DNA of 64,000 bases from Lama guanicoe (lineage: Eukaryota): contig MU054391.1 in the NCBI GenBank assembly GCA_013239625.1, forward strand, positions 744,001 to 808,000, written 5' to 3'. Under the pieces are notes generated by a model. It was not told the DNA's origin. It saw only the letters and a program-made list of their open reading frames with translations, and ran no database searches. Shown here one piece after another: positions 34,852-64,000 of this stretch; the first letter of the stretch is position 1; each line of letters begins with the position of its first letter. Position numbers and translations under genes: made by a program.

Positions 34852-35170
34852 AGCACCAACCAGAGCGCCAGCAGCACCAGCATCACCCAGAGCACTGGCA
34901 GCACCACCTGGAGCACCGGCAACACTGGTACCACCTGTAGCACTGGCACCACCTGAATCACCAGCGCCAGCACCACCTGGAGCACTGGTACCACCCTGAG
35001 CATTGGCACCACCTGCAGCACCGGCACCACCTGCAGCACCGGCACCACCTGAATCACCAGCACCAGCACCACCTGGAGCACCGGCACCACCTGCAGCACC
35101 GGCACCACCTGAATCACCAGCACCAGCACCACCTGGAGCACCGGTACCAGCACCATCAGCAGCACCAGTG
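34852..35170. repeat. GC-rich minisatellite built on GCACCA / GCACCACCTG with 18-24-bp subunits and a 60-bp higher-order period
   Basis: Lines starting at 35041 and 35101 are near identical; recurring ggcaccacctg(ca/aa/ga). Confidence 0.9.
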
Positions 35171-35599: not shown

Positions 35600-37200
35600 C
35601 CCACGGCAGTTGCCCTGCTTGAAATCAAGCCGGTTTCTTGAATTACAACTTAGATCACGTCCACTCTCTATTCAGATTTCCTCAATAGCTCCTCGACACT
35701 GAATCGTAGTCACCCTCTGTTTGCTTTTTAAATTAGCTTTTATTTGCACGCAGTTTGAAGAGGCATCCAGCTGGAAAGCCGCAGCTCCCCAGATCTCACC
35801 CTCAATGGATGTCCGTTCCCCACAGGAACCATCATCAAAATTCTGGTCACTCTTTTGGTTTCCACTCCTTTGTCTCTAACAAGGGGTTGTGTTCTTATGT
35901 CTTGATACCCTAGCTTCAGGCATTTCCTACTGCCTTCTTGCCAAAGGAAGTTCACCCTTCGCATCAGAGATTCCCGCCACCCACCGCCCAAGTAAACAAG
36001 TGCATCGTCAGCGCCGTGAAATTCCCATGTGGCTGGACTGTGATCTTGTTCAGTGTGGGGCTCACGTTCGACATGATGCCAGGGCGACAGAGTGGCAGAG
36101 CCAGGAAACGCACTACAGTTCTTTTCTTTCCTGCATAACTTAATTGTCCCTGTATTGACACATTCTGAGTTTTCTGCATTTCTATGTATTTGATTCCCAA
36201 ACTCTCCCCAGGTGTGTAAAACTCTGCCCAAGTTCAGATCCATTAGGCATTCCAGCAGTCATCTGGGCTACCCATGTCTCGGTCCCTCTGGAATGCCCAC
36301 CACCTTCCCAAGAATGCCGTCCCTCCTCCCGGCTGGGGTCTCCCTGTGAGACCAAGGGCTCTTTTCCTCCGGGCCTTCCATTAGGGTGAAGCACACACTC
36401 CCGGAGCTCGCTGAGGAAGGGTACGCTGAGGGGACATTGCTGAGACCTTGCACGACTGAAAACGCCTCTGTTCTAACTTCACGCTGGACTGCTGGTTTGT
36501 CTGCGGTTGTAAGTCAAAACTGCGGAGCATTTCCCCTCAGAACGTAAGCTGTTTTCTTTTTTGTGTTCCAGTTTCTTGCGATTGTGTCAAAAGTCCAACA
36601 CTGTTATGATTTTTGATCTTTTGTACGAAACCCAGCTTTCTCCTTCTCCCTGAAGCTCACAGGACCTTTGTCGCTAGGCTCTGAGGCTTCTCCTGGGGGG
36701 GGGGGGTCCTCGCCTCCTGGGACACTGGGCGGGCCGCGCTGNNNNNNNNNNNNNNNNNNNNNNNNNNNNNNNNNGGGGGGGGGGGGTCTTCGCCTCCTGG
36801 GGACACTGGGCGGGCCGCGCTGACCTGGAAAGGCAGTTCAGGGAAATGTTTTGAATTGCTCCTTGCAGTGTCCCCCCTAACTTGCTCTCGTCCTTTTTCT
36901 GGATGGCTGCTATTCGGACGCTGTGCTTCCGGGCTGGCTCCTTTACTGCCCTGTCTTTTTCCTCCCATTTTCCCACAGTTGTGGCCTTCTAGCTAGGAGG
37001 CTTCTTCAGTTTCATCTTCAAACCTCCCCTTGAGGTTCTATTTCTTACTATCTTTGATGTTTCTAAATTTCTTAGAGCTCATGTTGCTTTCTAAGCAAAC
37101 TATCTTCCCATCTCTCTGACAATACTATTGTAATTTTTTAAGGTCTCTTCTATACACAACCTATTTCTCCAAGTTGTTTTTCTGTGTATTGTTTCCATCT
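35600..37200 (-). mobile_element. Probable very old L1 remnants (T-rich + strand)
   Basis: T-rich composition with L1M-like phrases (ttcccctcagaacgtaag...aaagtccaacactgttatgatttttgatcttttgta). Boundaries uncertain. Confidence 0.3.
36742..36774. other. Assembly gap (33 N) flanked by two copies of a ~47-bp G-rich unit
   Basis: N run; G12-tc(c/t)tcgcctcctggg(g)acactgggcgggccgcgctg on both sides. Confidence 0.95.
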
Positions 37201-47963: not shown

Positions 47964-47994
47964 NNNNNNNNNNNNNNNNNNNNNNNNNNNNNNN
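47964..47994. other. Assembly gap (31 N) inside a G-rich repeat (GG(A/G)GGCGGGTCT-like units)
   Basis: N run with gggggcgggtct on both sides. Confidence 0.95.
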
Positions 47995-56307: not shown

Positions 56308-56537
56308 CTGCAAGGAGAAAGGAGGGTGAGTCACTGGGGTGCTGTGGGCAGGGGCCCCGAGAACCTCTTGGGTGTCGGAGAGAGAACAGGCGACACAGAC
56401 AGACAGACAGGACTGGAAACTGGAAGGAGGAGAGCGGGGGTGCAGGGCCTGGGCCCGGAGCCGAGGGCACGGTCTCCACTGGCCGGCGGGCTCTCTGCGT
56501 GCCCGCCCATGGGGCCCCCCGCCCGCAGCGCGCTCAC

Positions 56538-56571
56538 CTGAACAGCTCCTGGATGGCCGGCTCCACGGGCA
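56538..56571 (-). CDS. MYT1L: MYT1L coding exon 2 (34 nt), (V)PVEPAIQELF(S)
   Basis: CTCTCTCCGCAG|TGCCCGTGGAG...CTGTTCAG|GTGAGC; phase 1 to phase 2, continuous with both neighbours. Confidence 0.93.
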
Positions 56572-56734
56572 CTGCGGAGAGAGGGAACAGACAGTTCACC
56601 GTCCACGGGGGGCCCGCCGCAGGAGACCCCGGGAGCGCGGCTCAAAGGCCGGCTCGGAGTGCACCGCGCAGCCGGCTTCTGCAGGGCGGAGGGGAGCCCG
56701 CACAGGGCCCGGGGGCCGGGAAGCCCGGACGTAC

Positions 56735-56789
56735 CTCGCACCCCTTTGGACCGCGTGCGATGCCGCTTCTCCTCGGTGTCCACCTCCAT
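56735..56789 (-). CDS. MYT1L: MYT1L coding exon 1 (55 nt), MEVDTEEKRHRTRSKGVR; ATG is the first base after the acceptor
   Basis: Minus strand TCTCTCCCCAG|ATGGAGGTG...GTGCGAG|GTACGT. ORF 56331..56789 starts with this peptide. Confidence 0.95.
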
Positions 56790-59489
56790 CTGGGGAGAGA
56801 GGAAGGCGGTCAGCGTGCATCCCGGGCCAGCAGTTTCGGACAGTGTCTTAAACCCATTTCCCTCTGTGAGGGGCGCCGCCGGGAGGGTCAGGCGTTCTAA
56901 GTGTGCTGCTTAAAAATGAAGCAGACCGGGGTCTGGGGGGACTGCATCAGGAGGGGGAAGACTGATTTGGACGCATCGGGGCCGATCTGAGCTCTGCTCT
57001 GTCCCAGTAGTGCTGCGGACAGCACTGGGGCTTGCGAGAATGAAGCACGCACACACGGTGTCTGGGTTCTCCTCGCAGCTGAACCGTCTGACCTGACCGG
57101 GGGTTAGTGGGGAGGGGGTGGGTCTCACAGGAGGACGCATTTTACCTTGGGGGCTACCCTCACGGTGGCCTCGTTCCCGGGCTACAATTGTGTCCACCTT
57201 GGTCTAAATTGTCAAGATGCTTTCCAGGGACACAGGCCTTTGCTCATGGCCACTAGGGGTTACCAAGTCTTTCCAACCACGGCCTGTGTGATCCTCGCAC
57301 GATTCTGCAAGGAGGTATCTTTCTACACTTCTTTCACAGGTGTGACTTGCCCAAGACCATCCGAGCGGGAGCTTTCGGGCAGGACCCTGAAGCAGCCCCT
57401 GTCTGTCCACCCTTCCCCTTAAGCTGCAGGAACACACTGCTGGGCAGGTGGATCCGTGCCAGCGTGTTTGTGCCCGGAATATTTCGACGACACATGAGTA
57501 ATTCACACACAGCAAACCCGCATGGCAGGAGAATCCCCGTGTGTGTGTCAGAGGGGCTGGCAGAGCTGAGCAGCGAGCCGACCGCTCCCCTGACAGGTGC
57601 ATATGGGGTTGTTTTTGCCGAACGCCCAGCGTGGCCAGGGCTGCCTTCTGGCAGAAGATGGGGACACCCTGAAGTGCTAGGTGCGCACAGTTCACTTCCT
57701 CTGCAGTTTGTGACAAGAAAGTTCAGAATTTGGGAAGGAAGGCTCTGGTTAGAGGCATGTGACCCTCGTAGGTGCACGTTACGCAGAAGAACAGGGTAGG
57801 TCTGCGCGTGACTGGCCACGTCCCCCTGGAAGGTTCTGACAAGCCCCCTAGCAAACCTCATAGGACCTCAGAAGATGCCACAGGGGACTTGCCTGTCAGG
57901 GCCTTCTAGGCTTCCTTTGTTCACAACCAACTTGGAGCCTGGGGCCTAACGGAACATTTGAAACTGAAGCAAAATCTCAAAGGCTTCCAAGATGACCAGC
58001 AGGTGAGGTTTTAACAAAAGAATCGGCGTGCAGTTTCATTCAGATAAGGGGAGATCCGGCAGTTTCACACCCACGAAGCCCTGCTTCTCAGCTTGCACTG
58101 CCCCTCAGGACGGCGGGGAGGCCCGTGGCGGGGAGCGGTGAAGATGCTGACCGCTGCGATGGGTCACCCGGGGTTAACGGCCATCGCTGGAGCTCCCTTC
58201 ACGTTCAGCCCGTGCTTTCGGCCGCTCAGGGATGTTTACTTCTGAGTGTGGAACTTCCAGGACTTCAGGTGAAATTCCCCACCGTGTTCCCTCCAAATGC
58301 GACGACATTTCTGAGTAAAACAGCTGCTGCTCCTTCACCCCAGGTGGGAAAGTTAGAAAATAAGCCTGTGTCTGCATCAAAAGTCTGATCTTCTGACTCT
58401 GAGTGTGTTTCTAACGACTTCTCTGCTGCTGCATCCTTGAGCCGGTCCCAGGAGAAAACGCGGAGCGCCGGAACCCCGCATGAACCCCGGGGCCAGCGAG
58501 CCAGCACCCCGCCCGGAGCTACCCTGCGGTGCTCCGAACTCCTAACACGTCGGGCTAACACCCCACGTCTGGAGGGCCTGCACCCAGAGCTGAATCCTGG
58601 TTTTTCTGGGACTGGCCTCTGCAAACACCACTGGAAACACCACTCAATTTCTCTCGAAAGACACAGCTGGCTGGTGAAGCAGCCCCGCCACCTGGGGTCC
58701 CAGGTCCACCCGACCTCGTGTGTGACCCCTGCCGAGCCCTCGGGCAACCATTCTGCTCTCGGCCTGGTCCCCGCTGGTTCAGAAGACGGACTCTGACAGT
58801 GCTGACCGTGCGTCCAGACTGCCTGGGGCTGCGGCCTGGGTACCTTCCCAGGCCTCCCTGGGCCTCCCTGCTCTGGTCCAGGGACCTCAGCCCTTGAGGA
58901 CTGAGTCTGAGGACAGCAAAGTGGAACCTCTAGGTCCCGGGGCCTCTGAGGGGTCAAGGAGAAGCTGGACCTACGACACGTGACCGTTGTGGGATTTCCT
59001 GCTATTTTGTAGGAAGACTTCCTGTCCCGGCTCCAGACCCCACATCCACCATCAGGCCCTCCGTGGGCGGTGGAGGCCGGAGGTGTGGGATGCGGGGGCT
59101 GGACGGGCCGCTGAAGGATCCACACTTCTGGCTGCTTCCAGACGTTCACCATCGCACAGCAAGTTCATCTGAGGACCCTCCTCGCGTGTTTCCGTCCGGC
59201 CGGGGGCCCTCCCCGGAGCTACGCCGTTTCTTCCTGCCTCAAGGTTATTTACTGCTCTGACTTCTGTCCCCTCCATGCTTAGTAAACTCTGTTACACTTG
59301 TTTCTATGCGTTATGGTAAGAATAAGCCCCTCCCTGTTTTGTAAGCTCTTGGGTGCGTGTGGGGGGAACCCGGTAAAATCCCGCCCTCAGCCCACTGTTT
59401 CTCAGCGGTCATTTACTGAGCAGGTGCAGGGGCCGCTCCTTCCATCTGAAACCTTGAAGTCACACGTGGCTTTTCCCTTTCCTGTTTCT

Positions 59490-61916
59490 CTGTCCCACCA
59501 CCTGTCCCATCACCTGTCCCATCACCTGTCACACCATCTGTCCCATCACCTGTCGCATCACCTGTCCCACCACCTGTCCACCTGTCCCACCACCTGTCCC
59601 TCCACCTGTCCCTCCACCTGTCCCGTCACCTGTCCCACCACCTGTCCCACCACCTGTCCCGTCAGCTGTCCCGACAGCTGTCCCGTCACCTGTCCCACCA
59701 TCTGTCCCACCACCTGTCCCGTCAGCTGTCCCGCCAGCTGTCCCATCACCTGTCCCACCACTTGTCCCGTCAGCTGTCCCGACAGCTGTCCTGTCACCTG
59801 TCCCACCATCTGTCCCACCACCTGTCCCGTCAGCTGTCCCGTCACAGCTGTCCCGCTGTCCCGACAGCTGTCCTGTCACCTGTCCCACCATCTGTCCCAC
59901 CACCTGTCCCGTCAGCTGTCCCATCACCTGTCCCACCACCTGTCCCACCATCTATCTACCTGTCCCACCACCTGTCGCATCACCTGTCCCACCACCTGTC
60001 CACCTGTCCCTCCACCTGTCCCTCCACCTGTCCTGTCACCTGTCCCATCACCTGTCCCACCACCTGTCCCACCACTTGTCCCGTCAGCTGTCCCGACAGC
60101 TGTCCCGTCACCTGTCCCACCACCTGTCCCACCACCTGTCCCACCACCTGTCCCGTCAGCTGTCCCATCACCTGTCCCACCACCTGTCCCACCATCTGTC
60201 CACCCGTCCCACCACCTGTCGCATCACCTGTCCCACCACCTGTCCCACCACCTGTCCCGTCAGCTGTCCCGTCAGCTGTCCCGTCACCTGTCCCACCACC
60301 TGTCCCACCACCTGTCCCATCACCTGTCCCACCACCTGTCCATCTGTCCCACTACCTGTCCCACCACCTGTCCCTCCACCTGTCCCGTCACCTGTCCCTC
60401 CACCTGTCCCTCCACCTGTCCCACCACCTGTCCCATCACCTGTCCCTCCACCTGTCCCTCCACCTGTCCCACCACTTGTCCCGTCAGCTGTCCCAACAGC
60501 TGTCCCGTCACCTGTCCCACCATCTGTCCCATCACCTGTCGCATCACCTGTCCCACCACCTGTCCATCTGTCCCACTACCTGTCCCACCACCTGTCCCTC
60601 CACCTGTCCCGTCACCTGTCCCGTCACCTGTCCCACCACTTGTCCCACCACTTGTCCCGTCAGCTGTCCCGACAGCTGCCCCGTCACCTGTCCCACCATC
60701 TGCCCCACCACCTGTCCCGTCAGCTGTCCCATCACCTGTCCCATCACCTGTCCCACCACCTGTCCCACCATCTATCCACCTGTCCCACCACCTGTCGCAT
60801 CACCTGTCCCACCACCTGTCCCACCACCTGTCCCGTCAGCTGTCCCGTCAGCTGTCCCGTCACCTGTCCCGTCACCTGTCCCACCACCTGTCCCACCATC
60901 TGTCCACCTGTCCCACCACCTGTCGCATCACCTGTCCCACCACCTGTCCATCTGTCCCACTACCTGTCCCACCACCTGTCCCTCCACCTGTCCCGTCACC
61001 TGTCCCTCCACCTGTCCCTCCACCTGTCCCACCACCTGTCCCATCACCTGTCCCTCCACCTGTCCCTCCACCTGTCCCACCACTTGTCCCGTCAGCTGTC
61101 CCAACAGCTGTCCCGTCACCTGTCCCACCATCTGTCCCATCACCTGTCGCATCACCTGTCCCACCACCTGTCCATCTGTCCCACTACCTGTCCCACCACC
61201 TGTCCCTCCCCCTGCCCCGTCACCTGTCCCGTCACCTGTCCCACCACTTGTCCCACCACTTGTCCCGTCAGCTGTCCCGCCAGCTGTCCCGTCACCTGTC
61301 CCACCATCTGCCCCACCACCTGTCCCGTCAGCTGTCCCGACAGCTGCCCCGTCACCTGTCCCACCATCTGCCCCACCACCTGTCCCGTCAGCTGTCCCGA
61401 CAGCTGCCCCGTCACCTGTCCCACCATCTGCCCCACCACCTGTCCCGTCAGCTGTCCCGACAGCTGCCCCGTCACCTGTCCCACCATCTGCCCCACCACC
61501 TGTCCCGTCAGCTGTCCCGACAGCTGCCCCGTCACCTGTCCCACCATCTGCCCCACCACCTGTCCCGTCAGCTGTCCCATCACCTGTCCCATCACCTGTC
61601 CCACCACCTGTCCCACCATCTATCCACCTGTCCCACCACCTGTCGCATCACCTGTCCCACCACCTGTCCATCTGTCCCACTACCTGTCCCACCACCTGTC
61701 CCTCCACCTGTCCCGTCACCTGTCCCGTCACCTGTCCCACCACTTGTCCCACCACTTGTCCCGTCAGCTGTCCCGACAGCTGCCCCGTCACCTGTCCCAC
61801 CATCTGCCCCACCACCTGTCCCGTCAGCTGTCCCATCACCTGTCCCATCACCTGTCCCACCACCTGTCCCACCATCTATCCACCTGTCCCACCACCTGTC
61901 GCATCACCTGTCCCAT
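59490..61916. repeat. 2.4-kb minisatellite, 12-bp unit (consensus CACCTGTCCCAC; variants CAGCTG/CATCTG/CACTTG and GT/AT/GA/TC ends), with higher-order blocks
   Basis: Directly visible; about 200 units by length/12. Four identical 60-bp lines at 61321-61560. Identical repeat-derived ORFs at 60320/60928 and 60544/61648 show larger duplicated blocks. Confidence 0.97.
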
Positions 61917-62409
61917 TCTGCTCTTTGCCGTGGTATTCATTCTCCTCCTACTGCTCCCGTTTCCTTGGGCACCCCTAGCTCAAATCCTCTCCTGTTAAGC
62001 CTGAGTCACTGCCACCTCCCCGTCGATGCCTATCCCCTCGTCACCCCACTGTGTGTACAGCATGCAGGACGCTTGAGGAACCAGAAAGGTTCCCTGTGAC
62101 TTCCTCGAGTCTCAGAAGTGTCTGCCTTTCTTTTCTTTACTTCTTCTACGTTATTGGTTGGGAAAAGAAATCAAAAGACAGTGCCACCAGCTCAGCAGTG
62201 GCAACAAAGCAGCAGAGCCTCTTCCTCCAGCCGCCTGCCTCCGCCCGAGGAGGCCACGCTCTCTTCACTCCTGAAACGTGAGGCGCAGAGCCGCTGCCCC
62301 CCAGGTGTTTACTGTTTACAAAAGCCAGCTCCCATACACACAAACTCTCCTGTAAATCGCTATTTTTCACTTATTAAAAATCACAGCTCTCTCTCCAGGT
62401 CAATGCCTG

Positions 62410-63150
62410 TGGAGTAAACTCATTTTTTGCATAGCTGCATAATATACCCCAGAATGTGTATGTGATCGTTTATCCAACCATCCCCAGAAGCTCCCCTACG
62501 AATGGATAGTTACGCTCTTCTATTTCATTTTCTTCCAGCGAAGAAGAGGTGCGACCCAGATCACGCACATCTTTGTGCGTATTTCCCGATATGGCTTTCT
62601 TAAAAGGTTGCTGTTAGAAAATGTAAGGGTGCATGCCCTTGTTGGTAACGTATGTCTGTGCCCATCGCCACGGCTCCCTGGTCTTTTGTTTCCGCCGAGT
62701 GAAGTCACTGTCACACTCTCCAGCCCGCACGTGTCTCCATCCCCGACCACGGATGAGGGTCAGTGTCTCCTGGCTGCTGGCCTCCCTTCTGCTGGGAAGT
62801 TCTCCGTCTTATCCTCTGTCTGTTCTCCCATCCACGTGTAGTAGGTCTCTGCATGTCTGAGGTGTTGACCCCTCTACACAGCTTATCTGTTGTGAGTATT
62901 GTCTCATTTCCCCCTTTGCTGGTGGTGTTTTTCCCAAGCAGAGGTGCTAAATGTAGGTGATCCCACAGCCATGCAGACAGAGGCCAGCGCCTGCAGCCCG
63001 GGTGTCTTCCTCACCACCTGTACTGCCCAGCGGCTCTCAGCTGCCCGCCAGGTGCCCACCCTGTTCCCCGTGCCCCGCCAGGCTGAGTGCCCCGCGCCCT
63101 CGGCGGGCCTGGCGCCTCCTGTCTGGCTGTCGGGCTCACATCTGTGGTCC
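62410..63150 (-). mobile_element. Old L1M fragment (ORF2 3' region/3' UTR)
   Basis: ctcattttttgcatagctgcataatatacccc...tttatccaaccatcccc...atggatagtta is typical of reversed L1M 3' ends. Confidence 0.55.
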
Positions 63151-64000
63151 GTTCTGTATCCTCGGCTGTGTGTGTGTGACCGGCCTGGAGGGGTGCTCCT
63201 AGAGGATCCACACCTGCCTCAGCCAGGCAGCCCCTGAGGGGAAGGGAAATGAGAGGGAAGGCGTGTCTCCTTCCGGCAGGGATGACCCAGCGACGTGACG
63301 GGGACCCGCTCTGCCGAGCAGCCAGCTGCGCTCTACTCTCAAGCAGAGCAGAAAGCCCACCGCCGAGGCCCCTGGCCTGTGTTAGCACTTTCCAAGTTCT
63401 TCCACCTAATTTAAATTCTGACAAGGCAGCACAGAAGTAAAACTCAAAGATTCAAGTATGTTTTGACATAAAATACTAATAGAAATGTCCATTTATACAA
63501 GGATTTGAAATTATCCTAGTGATTTTCTAGTTCATAATTTTTTAATCCAGTTTAAAAAAAATTTTTTTTAAAGGGAGGAACATTCTGAAAGAGTAAAGAG
63601 AAGAAAAACTAGAGAAGCTTCTGTCTAGGAGTGAGAGAAGGTGCGATCTGTGAGCTGTGTTTGTGCTCAGCGGAGGTGACGTACAGGATCCCGCGGAAAA
63701 CGTTCAGAAATTAAACCGTCCCAGGAGCTGTTAAATGGGAACAGACGTGAGCTCAGAGAGAACGGCTGGCTCGGAATTTCGTTTCTCCCACTTCCTGCAC
63801 CTTTAGCCTCAGTTACATCACCGGCACAAACTGCAGTGAGACGAATGTTTCCCAAGAGCTTAGTGGGGTCGGAGGGGGCGACTTTGTAAACTGTGCAGTG
63901 CTGCGCACGTGCAAGGGGGGGCGCTGTGCCCTGACTCATCCAGTGACCTCAGCCCCGGGACGGGCCTCACGAGGCCGCACTGATGCTCTGTCCTATGGCG

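Follow-up and report, generated by a model that had tools for sequence, protein, structure and literature searches.

What is an intron of a neuronal gene doing with close to two hundred E-boxes laid head to tail, and is anything keeping them there? The question is raised by a small part of the window (the whole 64,000-nucleotide stretch of guanaco DNA analysed here), where a minisatellite at positions 59490–61915 repeats a 12-bp unit 206.7 times, with 80% matches, over 2,426 bp (TRF). A preliminary description of this DNA had spoken of about 200 copies, an E-box (CANNTG) in nearly every unit, common variants that alter only the central bases, and few units in which the motif is broken. All of this stands. 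An E-box is present in 193 of the 206 parsed units, and a count over the same interval gives 125 CACCTG, 38 CAGCTG, 20 CATCTG and 10 CACTTG; none of the 193 is of the CACGTG class. The breakers come to 13 copies (TACCTG 6, CATCTA 4, and CACCCG, CCCCTG and CCGCTG 1 each). Taking CACCTG and TACCTG together as ZEB-type sites (125 + 6), 131 of the 206 units carry one, at 12-bp spacing. The E-box density of about 80 per kb, against 6.05 per kb in 661 kb of surrounding DNA, arises because a single E-box-bearing unit is repeated; a random local 12-mer, circularised, contains CANNTG in 6.6% of cases and CACCTG/CAGGTG in 1.6%.

The array has the sequence features of a minisatellite: a head-to-tail 12-bp unit (about 207 of them, in 28 types), a GC content of 64%, strand asymmetry (a skew of about −0.6, the G-rich strand being the minus, or MYT1L sense, strand), interspersed variants, block duplications and unique flanks. 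The flanks, at 59050–59500 and 61905–62400 (forward strand), each have one match in the genome, namely themselves, in a search that skips very common words, and all six genome matches to an exact three-unit pattern of the array fall at this locus. Within the array, again on the forward strand, sequence comparison picks out a 284-bp block at 60318–60601 with an exact copy at 60926–61209, and a 279-bp block at 60533–60811 with an exact copy at 61637–61915; repeat analysis adds, at 61293–61568, a higher-order repeat in which a block of five units (60 bp) recurs about 4.6 times. The exact duplications point to recent block turnover, or are in part an effect of assembly. A pair of CAGCTG motifs at 59663 and 59675, the second said to lie within the palindrome GACAGCTGTC, is there as described (59663–59682, forward strand; palindrome at 59673). 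It folds as a 7-bp DNA hairpin (z −3.0), and there are 15 such pairs 12 bp apart. Some variants resemble CpG decay (CCCGT to CCTGT in 3 units, CCCGA to CCCAA in 2) and the array's observed/expected CpG ratio, 0.44, is below the 0.57 of the window outside it, which together suggest that the array may be methylated in the germline.

Where does the array sit? The host gene is MYT1L: a large exon is 99% identical to a Camelus dromedarius MYT1L cluster, and tblastn with the dromedary-cluster protein maps residues 1–18 to 56789–56736 on the minus strand. The first coding exon (56735–56789, minus strand, 55 bp) starts with the ATG at 56789, which lies 2,701 bp from the array and is abutted by a 3' splice site at 56790–56815 (minus strand) with a branch-point-like CTGAC, a polypyrimidine tract and CAG. 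In mouse Myt1l, according to the excerpted text of PMC9087967, exon 6 is the first coding exon. Since the ATG directly follows a splice acceptor, and coding begins only in the sixth exon of the mouse gene, the array most likely sits in a 5'UTR intron, the last one, rather than at the promoter. The preliminary description was thus right to place it some 2.7 kb upstream of the start codon, but the position is an intronic one. Judging by the structure of the human gene, we take the promoter to be some hundreds of kilobases from the array, and a distance of this order is likely. The contig is 9.7 Mb long, and 0.80 Mb separates the array from its start; the DNA there has 53–60% GC, and the region is presumably syntenic with human 2p25.3. 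A subtelomeric position is plausible; no telomere array was found in the first 30 kb of the contig. Human MYT1L is among the 100 genes richest in VNTRs, with 11 of them (PMC7608644, Table S8), and a sizeable GC-rich repeat here comes as no surprise. Excerpts of PMC12047246 and PMC13274601 link structural variants or repeats at human MYT1L to methylation differences, which have no bearing on the camelid array, and the excerpts of PMC8327921 do not mention MYT1L. We found no publication on the array itself among entries on MYT1L VNTRs, ZEB1 tandem repeats and camel minisatellites.

There is nothing out of the ordinary in the array as a minisatellite except its size, which is unusual in this assembly. 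The surrounding 664 kb contain 22 arrays with a period of at least 7 and a length of at least 100, of which it is the longest at 2,426 bp (the next is 498 bp); CANNTG is found in the consensus of 8 of the 22. Genome-wide, it holds 51 of the 67 CACCTG triplets of period 12. Among the matches listed, which include 100 of the 162 with short spacers, and at periods up to 14 bp, its 125 CACCTG compare with 56 and 38 in the next arrays fetched. It is the largest CACCTG array among these matches, and a larger one may exist beyond them or at other arrays interrupted by N gaps. Are CACCTG arrays favoured in general? With spacers of 2–8, CACCTG triplets number 366 genome-wide, between the totals for two non-E-box hexamers of matched frequency (529 and 167); a rarer reversed control has 21. 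On contigs numbered below C3031, a hand count finds CACCTG triplets at 32 loci, 7 of them with several matches, while the controls reach 20 loci (2 with several) and 22 (none). There is a mild hint here that CACCTG arrays are somewhat favoured in this genome, one that two controls cannot settle. The same searches turned up 458 forward against 71 reverse CACAGG triplets, which implies at least one very large array of CACAGG.

At the heart of the matter is whether the E-box has been retained by selection. The way substitutions fall along the unit speaks on both sides. The most variable positions, 11 (41%) and 12 (47%), lie outside the hexamer, but so do positions 7–10, which vary by only 0–7%. 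Summed over the four positions critical to the E-box, the variant rate is 0.063, and of 495 four-position sets 13 do as well (p = 0.026). The four breaking substitution types have copy numbers of 6, 2, 1 and 4, lower than those of the other 11 types (rank test, p = 0.02), and random reassignment of mutation events gives p = 0.037 for the retention observed. CA..TG is the best conserved of 12 registers, with three other registers of the form XX..XX at 0.092, 0.106 and 0.107; in the random reassignments some register equals the E-box 36% of the time. Counted as distinct substitution types, the effect is gone: 4 of 15 fall on critical positions where 5 are expected (p = 0.40), an even spread. Neutral growth simulations (4,000 runs at each of three rates, only diversity-matched runs being counted) reach the observed retention in 9 of 63, 27 of 422 and 49 of 1064 runs, or 14%, 6% and 5%. 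The motif was chosen after seeing the data, and the copy-weighted p values of 0.02–0.04 are nominal. Retention of the E-box in this array is non-random only in that nominal sense, with p between about 0.02 and 0.14. Nor does the pattern suit any one protein. The ZEB core is CACCT, and the 68 E-box-sparing variant copies, the commonest hexamer variants in the array, do not have it. The breaker TACCTG, read on the other strand as CAGGTA, is a sequence bound by ZEB1 in EMSA according to PMC12064536. The retention pattern therefore fits no single factor.

Other arrays offer a second opinion. Of 20 other CACCTG loci, 10 contain an array of at least 100 bp and were used, and L055–L059, L061–L063, L065 and L066 were left out as short or without an array; with the second cluster of the window added and two paralogous copies merged, 10 families resulted. 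Twenty control loci, mostly too short, were excluded from the substitution test. In these families the single-base variants comprise 28 types, of which 7 are central and spare the E-box; at one-third, about 9 would be expected (p = 0.87). For changes of the C>T class, keepers number 6 types against 10 breakers; by copies they number 23 against 14, but 14 of the 23 keepers come from one array. The family test left out hexamers with two changes or broken by an indel, whose inclusion would raise the number of breakers; it also undercounts the MYT1L array, whose figures come from its own unit parse. Selective retention thus appears when copies are counted (p 0.02–0.04), disappears when mutation types are counted and is unreproduced in other CACCTG arrays, so that selection keeping the E-boxes for gene regulation has no more than weak, unreplicated signs in its favour. 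There is a general point here. Motif retention in amplified arrays should be judged by independent mutation events and by other arrays, and not by copy counts. Three of the loci fetched deserve mention in their own right. L047 (2293–2903, 21 copies) and L048 (1944–2202, 9 copies) share a 29-bp unit with three CACCTG and flanks that are 97–99.6% identical; they are a recent segmental duplicate or an alternate haplotype with differing array lengths, and hint that such arrays vary in length. L049 (953–1869) is a 917-bp array of 10–11-bp subunits resembling the MYT1L-array unit, with 38 CACCTG and 14 CATCTG, the change from CACCTG to CATCTG having been made there independently.

We therefore favour an unglamorous account. 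The array is probably a GC-rich minisatellite of neutral origin with little regulatory effect, its E-boxes a legacy of the founder unit and not of selection, and all 193 of them most likely go back to a founding unit in which CACCTG was present by chance. A 12-bp seed of this kind would have been amplified by slippage or unequal exchange and by block duplication; about 15 substitutions would have arisen, a few early ones being carried to high copy number, and the abundant ones would have happened to miss CA and TG. The preliminary description had itself cautioned that a few mutations multiplied by block duplication might underlie the variants, and this caveat fits best, given the exact 284- and 279-bp duplicates and the 4 of 15 types at critical positions. 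A neutral origin need not mean an array that nothing binds. With a ZEB-type site in 131 of 206 units, it is predicted to attract ZEB1/2, Snail or E-proteins in cells where these are made, and by analogy with human ZEB1-bound tandem repeats such binding is likely. Once bound, it would acquire local repressive chromatin, probably with little effect on a promoter that is likely hundreds of kilobases distant.

Other intronic repeats make useful company for such a minisatellite. The hTERT repeat VNTR2-1, in intron 2, reportedly acts as an enhancer. From what the excerpts of PMC2915984 say of it, it is like the MYT1L array in being an intronic minisatellite with an E-box in many of its units; it is unlike the array in that its unit is 42 bp and carries CACGTG, of the MYC class, which the array lacks altogether. 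The excerpted PMC7608644 describes GC-rich subtelomeric VNTRs of long brain genes, and the array (more than 60% GC, intronic, with interspersed variant units) resembles these too, though its 12-bp unit falls below the enriched class of more than 15 bp.

The alternative that survives best, unlikely as we consider it, also starts from a neutral origin. In this case the array has since been exapted as a silencer, recruiting ZEB1, ZEB2 or Snail with co-repressors and measurably reducing MYT1L expression, except in mature neurons, by an amount that scales with repeat length. Its 125 CACCTG and 6 TACCTG, more than in any other array listed or fetched, would make a generous platform, and there is precedent. 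ZEB1-bound tandem repeats act as silencers near human chromosome ends (Balestrieri et al. 2018 Cell 173:1150, by way of citing passages in PMC12064536, PMC10250210 and PMC11934927). Like those repeats, as the passages depict them, the array has dozens to hundreds of identical CACCTG/CAGGTG sites in GC-rich DNA and is a candidate repressor platform. Unlike them, its host is neuronal and non-human, not a gene of epithelial identity (the described repeats, in the excerpts of PMC12064536, lie in epithelial genes), and a third of its units carry non-ZEB E-boxes. By prediction it would work like a ZEB1 repeat; we do not class it as one. A further precedent is the VNTR in intron 1 of human CDH2 (PMC12064536), which binds ZEB1 through units with CAGGTA/CAGGTG motifs and, like the array, is intronic. 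The CDH2 repeat has 24 copies over 528 bp, hormone-response and RBPJ sites, and binding data to go with them, unlike the 207 copies of a 12-mer with E-boxes only that we can read off the guanaco contig. Against a silencer stands the likely distance of the MYT1L promoter. Nor can selection for ZEB sites be discerned, the core being missing from the commonest hexamer variants, 68 copies in all.

Quite improbable is a bolder version in which this camelid array, the largest short-period E2-box cluster seen in the assembly, would be a switch of variable length. ZEB/Snail would use it as a silencer in progenitors and outside the neural lineage, ASCL1/NEUROD would take it over in neurons, and repeat length and unit mix would tune MYT1L, a haploinsufficient gene of neuronal identity. 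Were binding and an effect on expression demonstrated, the idea of ZEB1 tandem-repeat silencers would be carried over from epithelial genes in human cancer cells to a neuronal, dosage-sensitive factor of a different mammalian order, and the array would offer a compact way to ask whether motif clusters borne by repeats can act from deep inside an intron.

Could the shape of the DNA account for the variants instead? On this account, which we think very improbable, hairpin-templated (quasi-palindrome) changes, together with G-quadruplexes or R-loops formed by the G-rich sense strand, give the variants their pattern and cause the array to expand, and CA and TG persist as the already-paired bases of an imperfect palindrome. 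On the E-box axis all four mismatched pairs do have a variant that perfects the palindrome (3G, 9G, 11G and 12A), but the probability under a transition/transversion-matched null is about 0.06, and on two others of the 12 axes the perfecting sums, 163 and 181, are higher than the 120 reached here. In eight DNA folds, CAGCTG-containing stretches form hairpins (z −1.5 to −3.3) and CACCTG-only stretches do not. The sense strand has a mean G4Hunter score of 1.07, with 33% of windows at or above 1.2, but a G3 motif with loops of up to 7 is absent from it.

More doubtful still is the reading first proposed for this array, that selection keeps CANNTG while ASCL1/NEUROD activators compete with ZEB/Snail repressors and copy number tunes the dose of MYT1L. 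The nominal retention p values of 0.02–0.04 would favour it, as would the activator-type hexamers, 38 CAGCTG and 20 CATCTG. NEUROD-type sites have a C flank at CATCTG, and all 20 have it. ASCL1 prefers a G flank at CAGCTG, but this is present in only 6 of 38. MYT1L cooperates with ASCL1 and is haploinsufficient, according to the excerpts of PMC9087967. The retention fades by mutation type (p = 0.40), across registers (0.36) and in other arrays, and selection should hardly register it when a few of the 193 sites are lost. What survives of the enhancer/silencer reading is that the motifs are present and that CACCTG repressor platforms have a precedent in the passages cited above; what does not is the retention, which is not established, and a promoter likely far away and few ASCL1 flanks weigh against the rest. 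Least probable of all is that a shorter true array has been inflated by mis-joined duplicate blocks, since, for all the two exact internal duplicates of about 280 bp and an assembly fragmented into 55,231 contigs with N gaps in several other array loci, this array contains no N, its flanks are clean and single-copy, and the order in which its variant units and 4-bp deletions come back is consistent, like that in real minisatellites.

Several further readings were set aside. The array is open in all three forward frames (937, 842 and 846 aa) because its C-rich units hold no stop, and a coding role was rejected; these frames, spanning 59286–62099 (842–937 codons), are a composition effect that gene finders could mis-call. 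A structured RNA was dismissed with no Rfam match in 56500–64000, and a transposon origin with each flank matching only itself in the genome. Decoy 5' splice sites on the sense strand (repeats of CAG|GTG) fared no better: the best 9-mers match the consensus at 6 of 9 positions, no CAG|GT form has a G at +5, and a candidate acceptor occurs just once, 354 nt upstream. The REST half-site CTGTCC occurs 168 times in the array, fewer than the E-box, and comes without its other half.

A few observations concern the gene at large. Residue 5 of MYT1L (window positions 56789–56775, minus strand) is Thr here and Ala in the cluster representative P0001, and the introns contain N runs at 36742–36774 (33 bases) and 47964–47994 (31 bases). 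A near-canonical RE1/REST site at C3031:1150612 lies to the 5' side of MYT1L, some 345 kb away from the array, and may mark a silencer or the promoter region of the gene. Probably also in the MYT1L 5' region is a 54-bp repeat of 9.2 copies (C3031:1021225–1021722) whose unit holds CAGCTG and CACGTG, with 19 CANNTG in all. Finally, a second, unrelated CACCTG-rich repeat, with an 18/60-bp period and 11 CACCTG, occupies 34868–35168 in a coding-region intron of the same gene.
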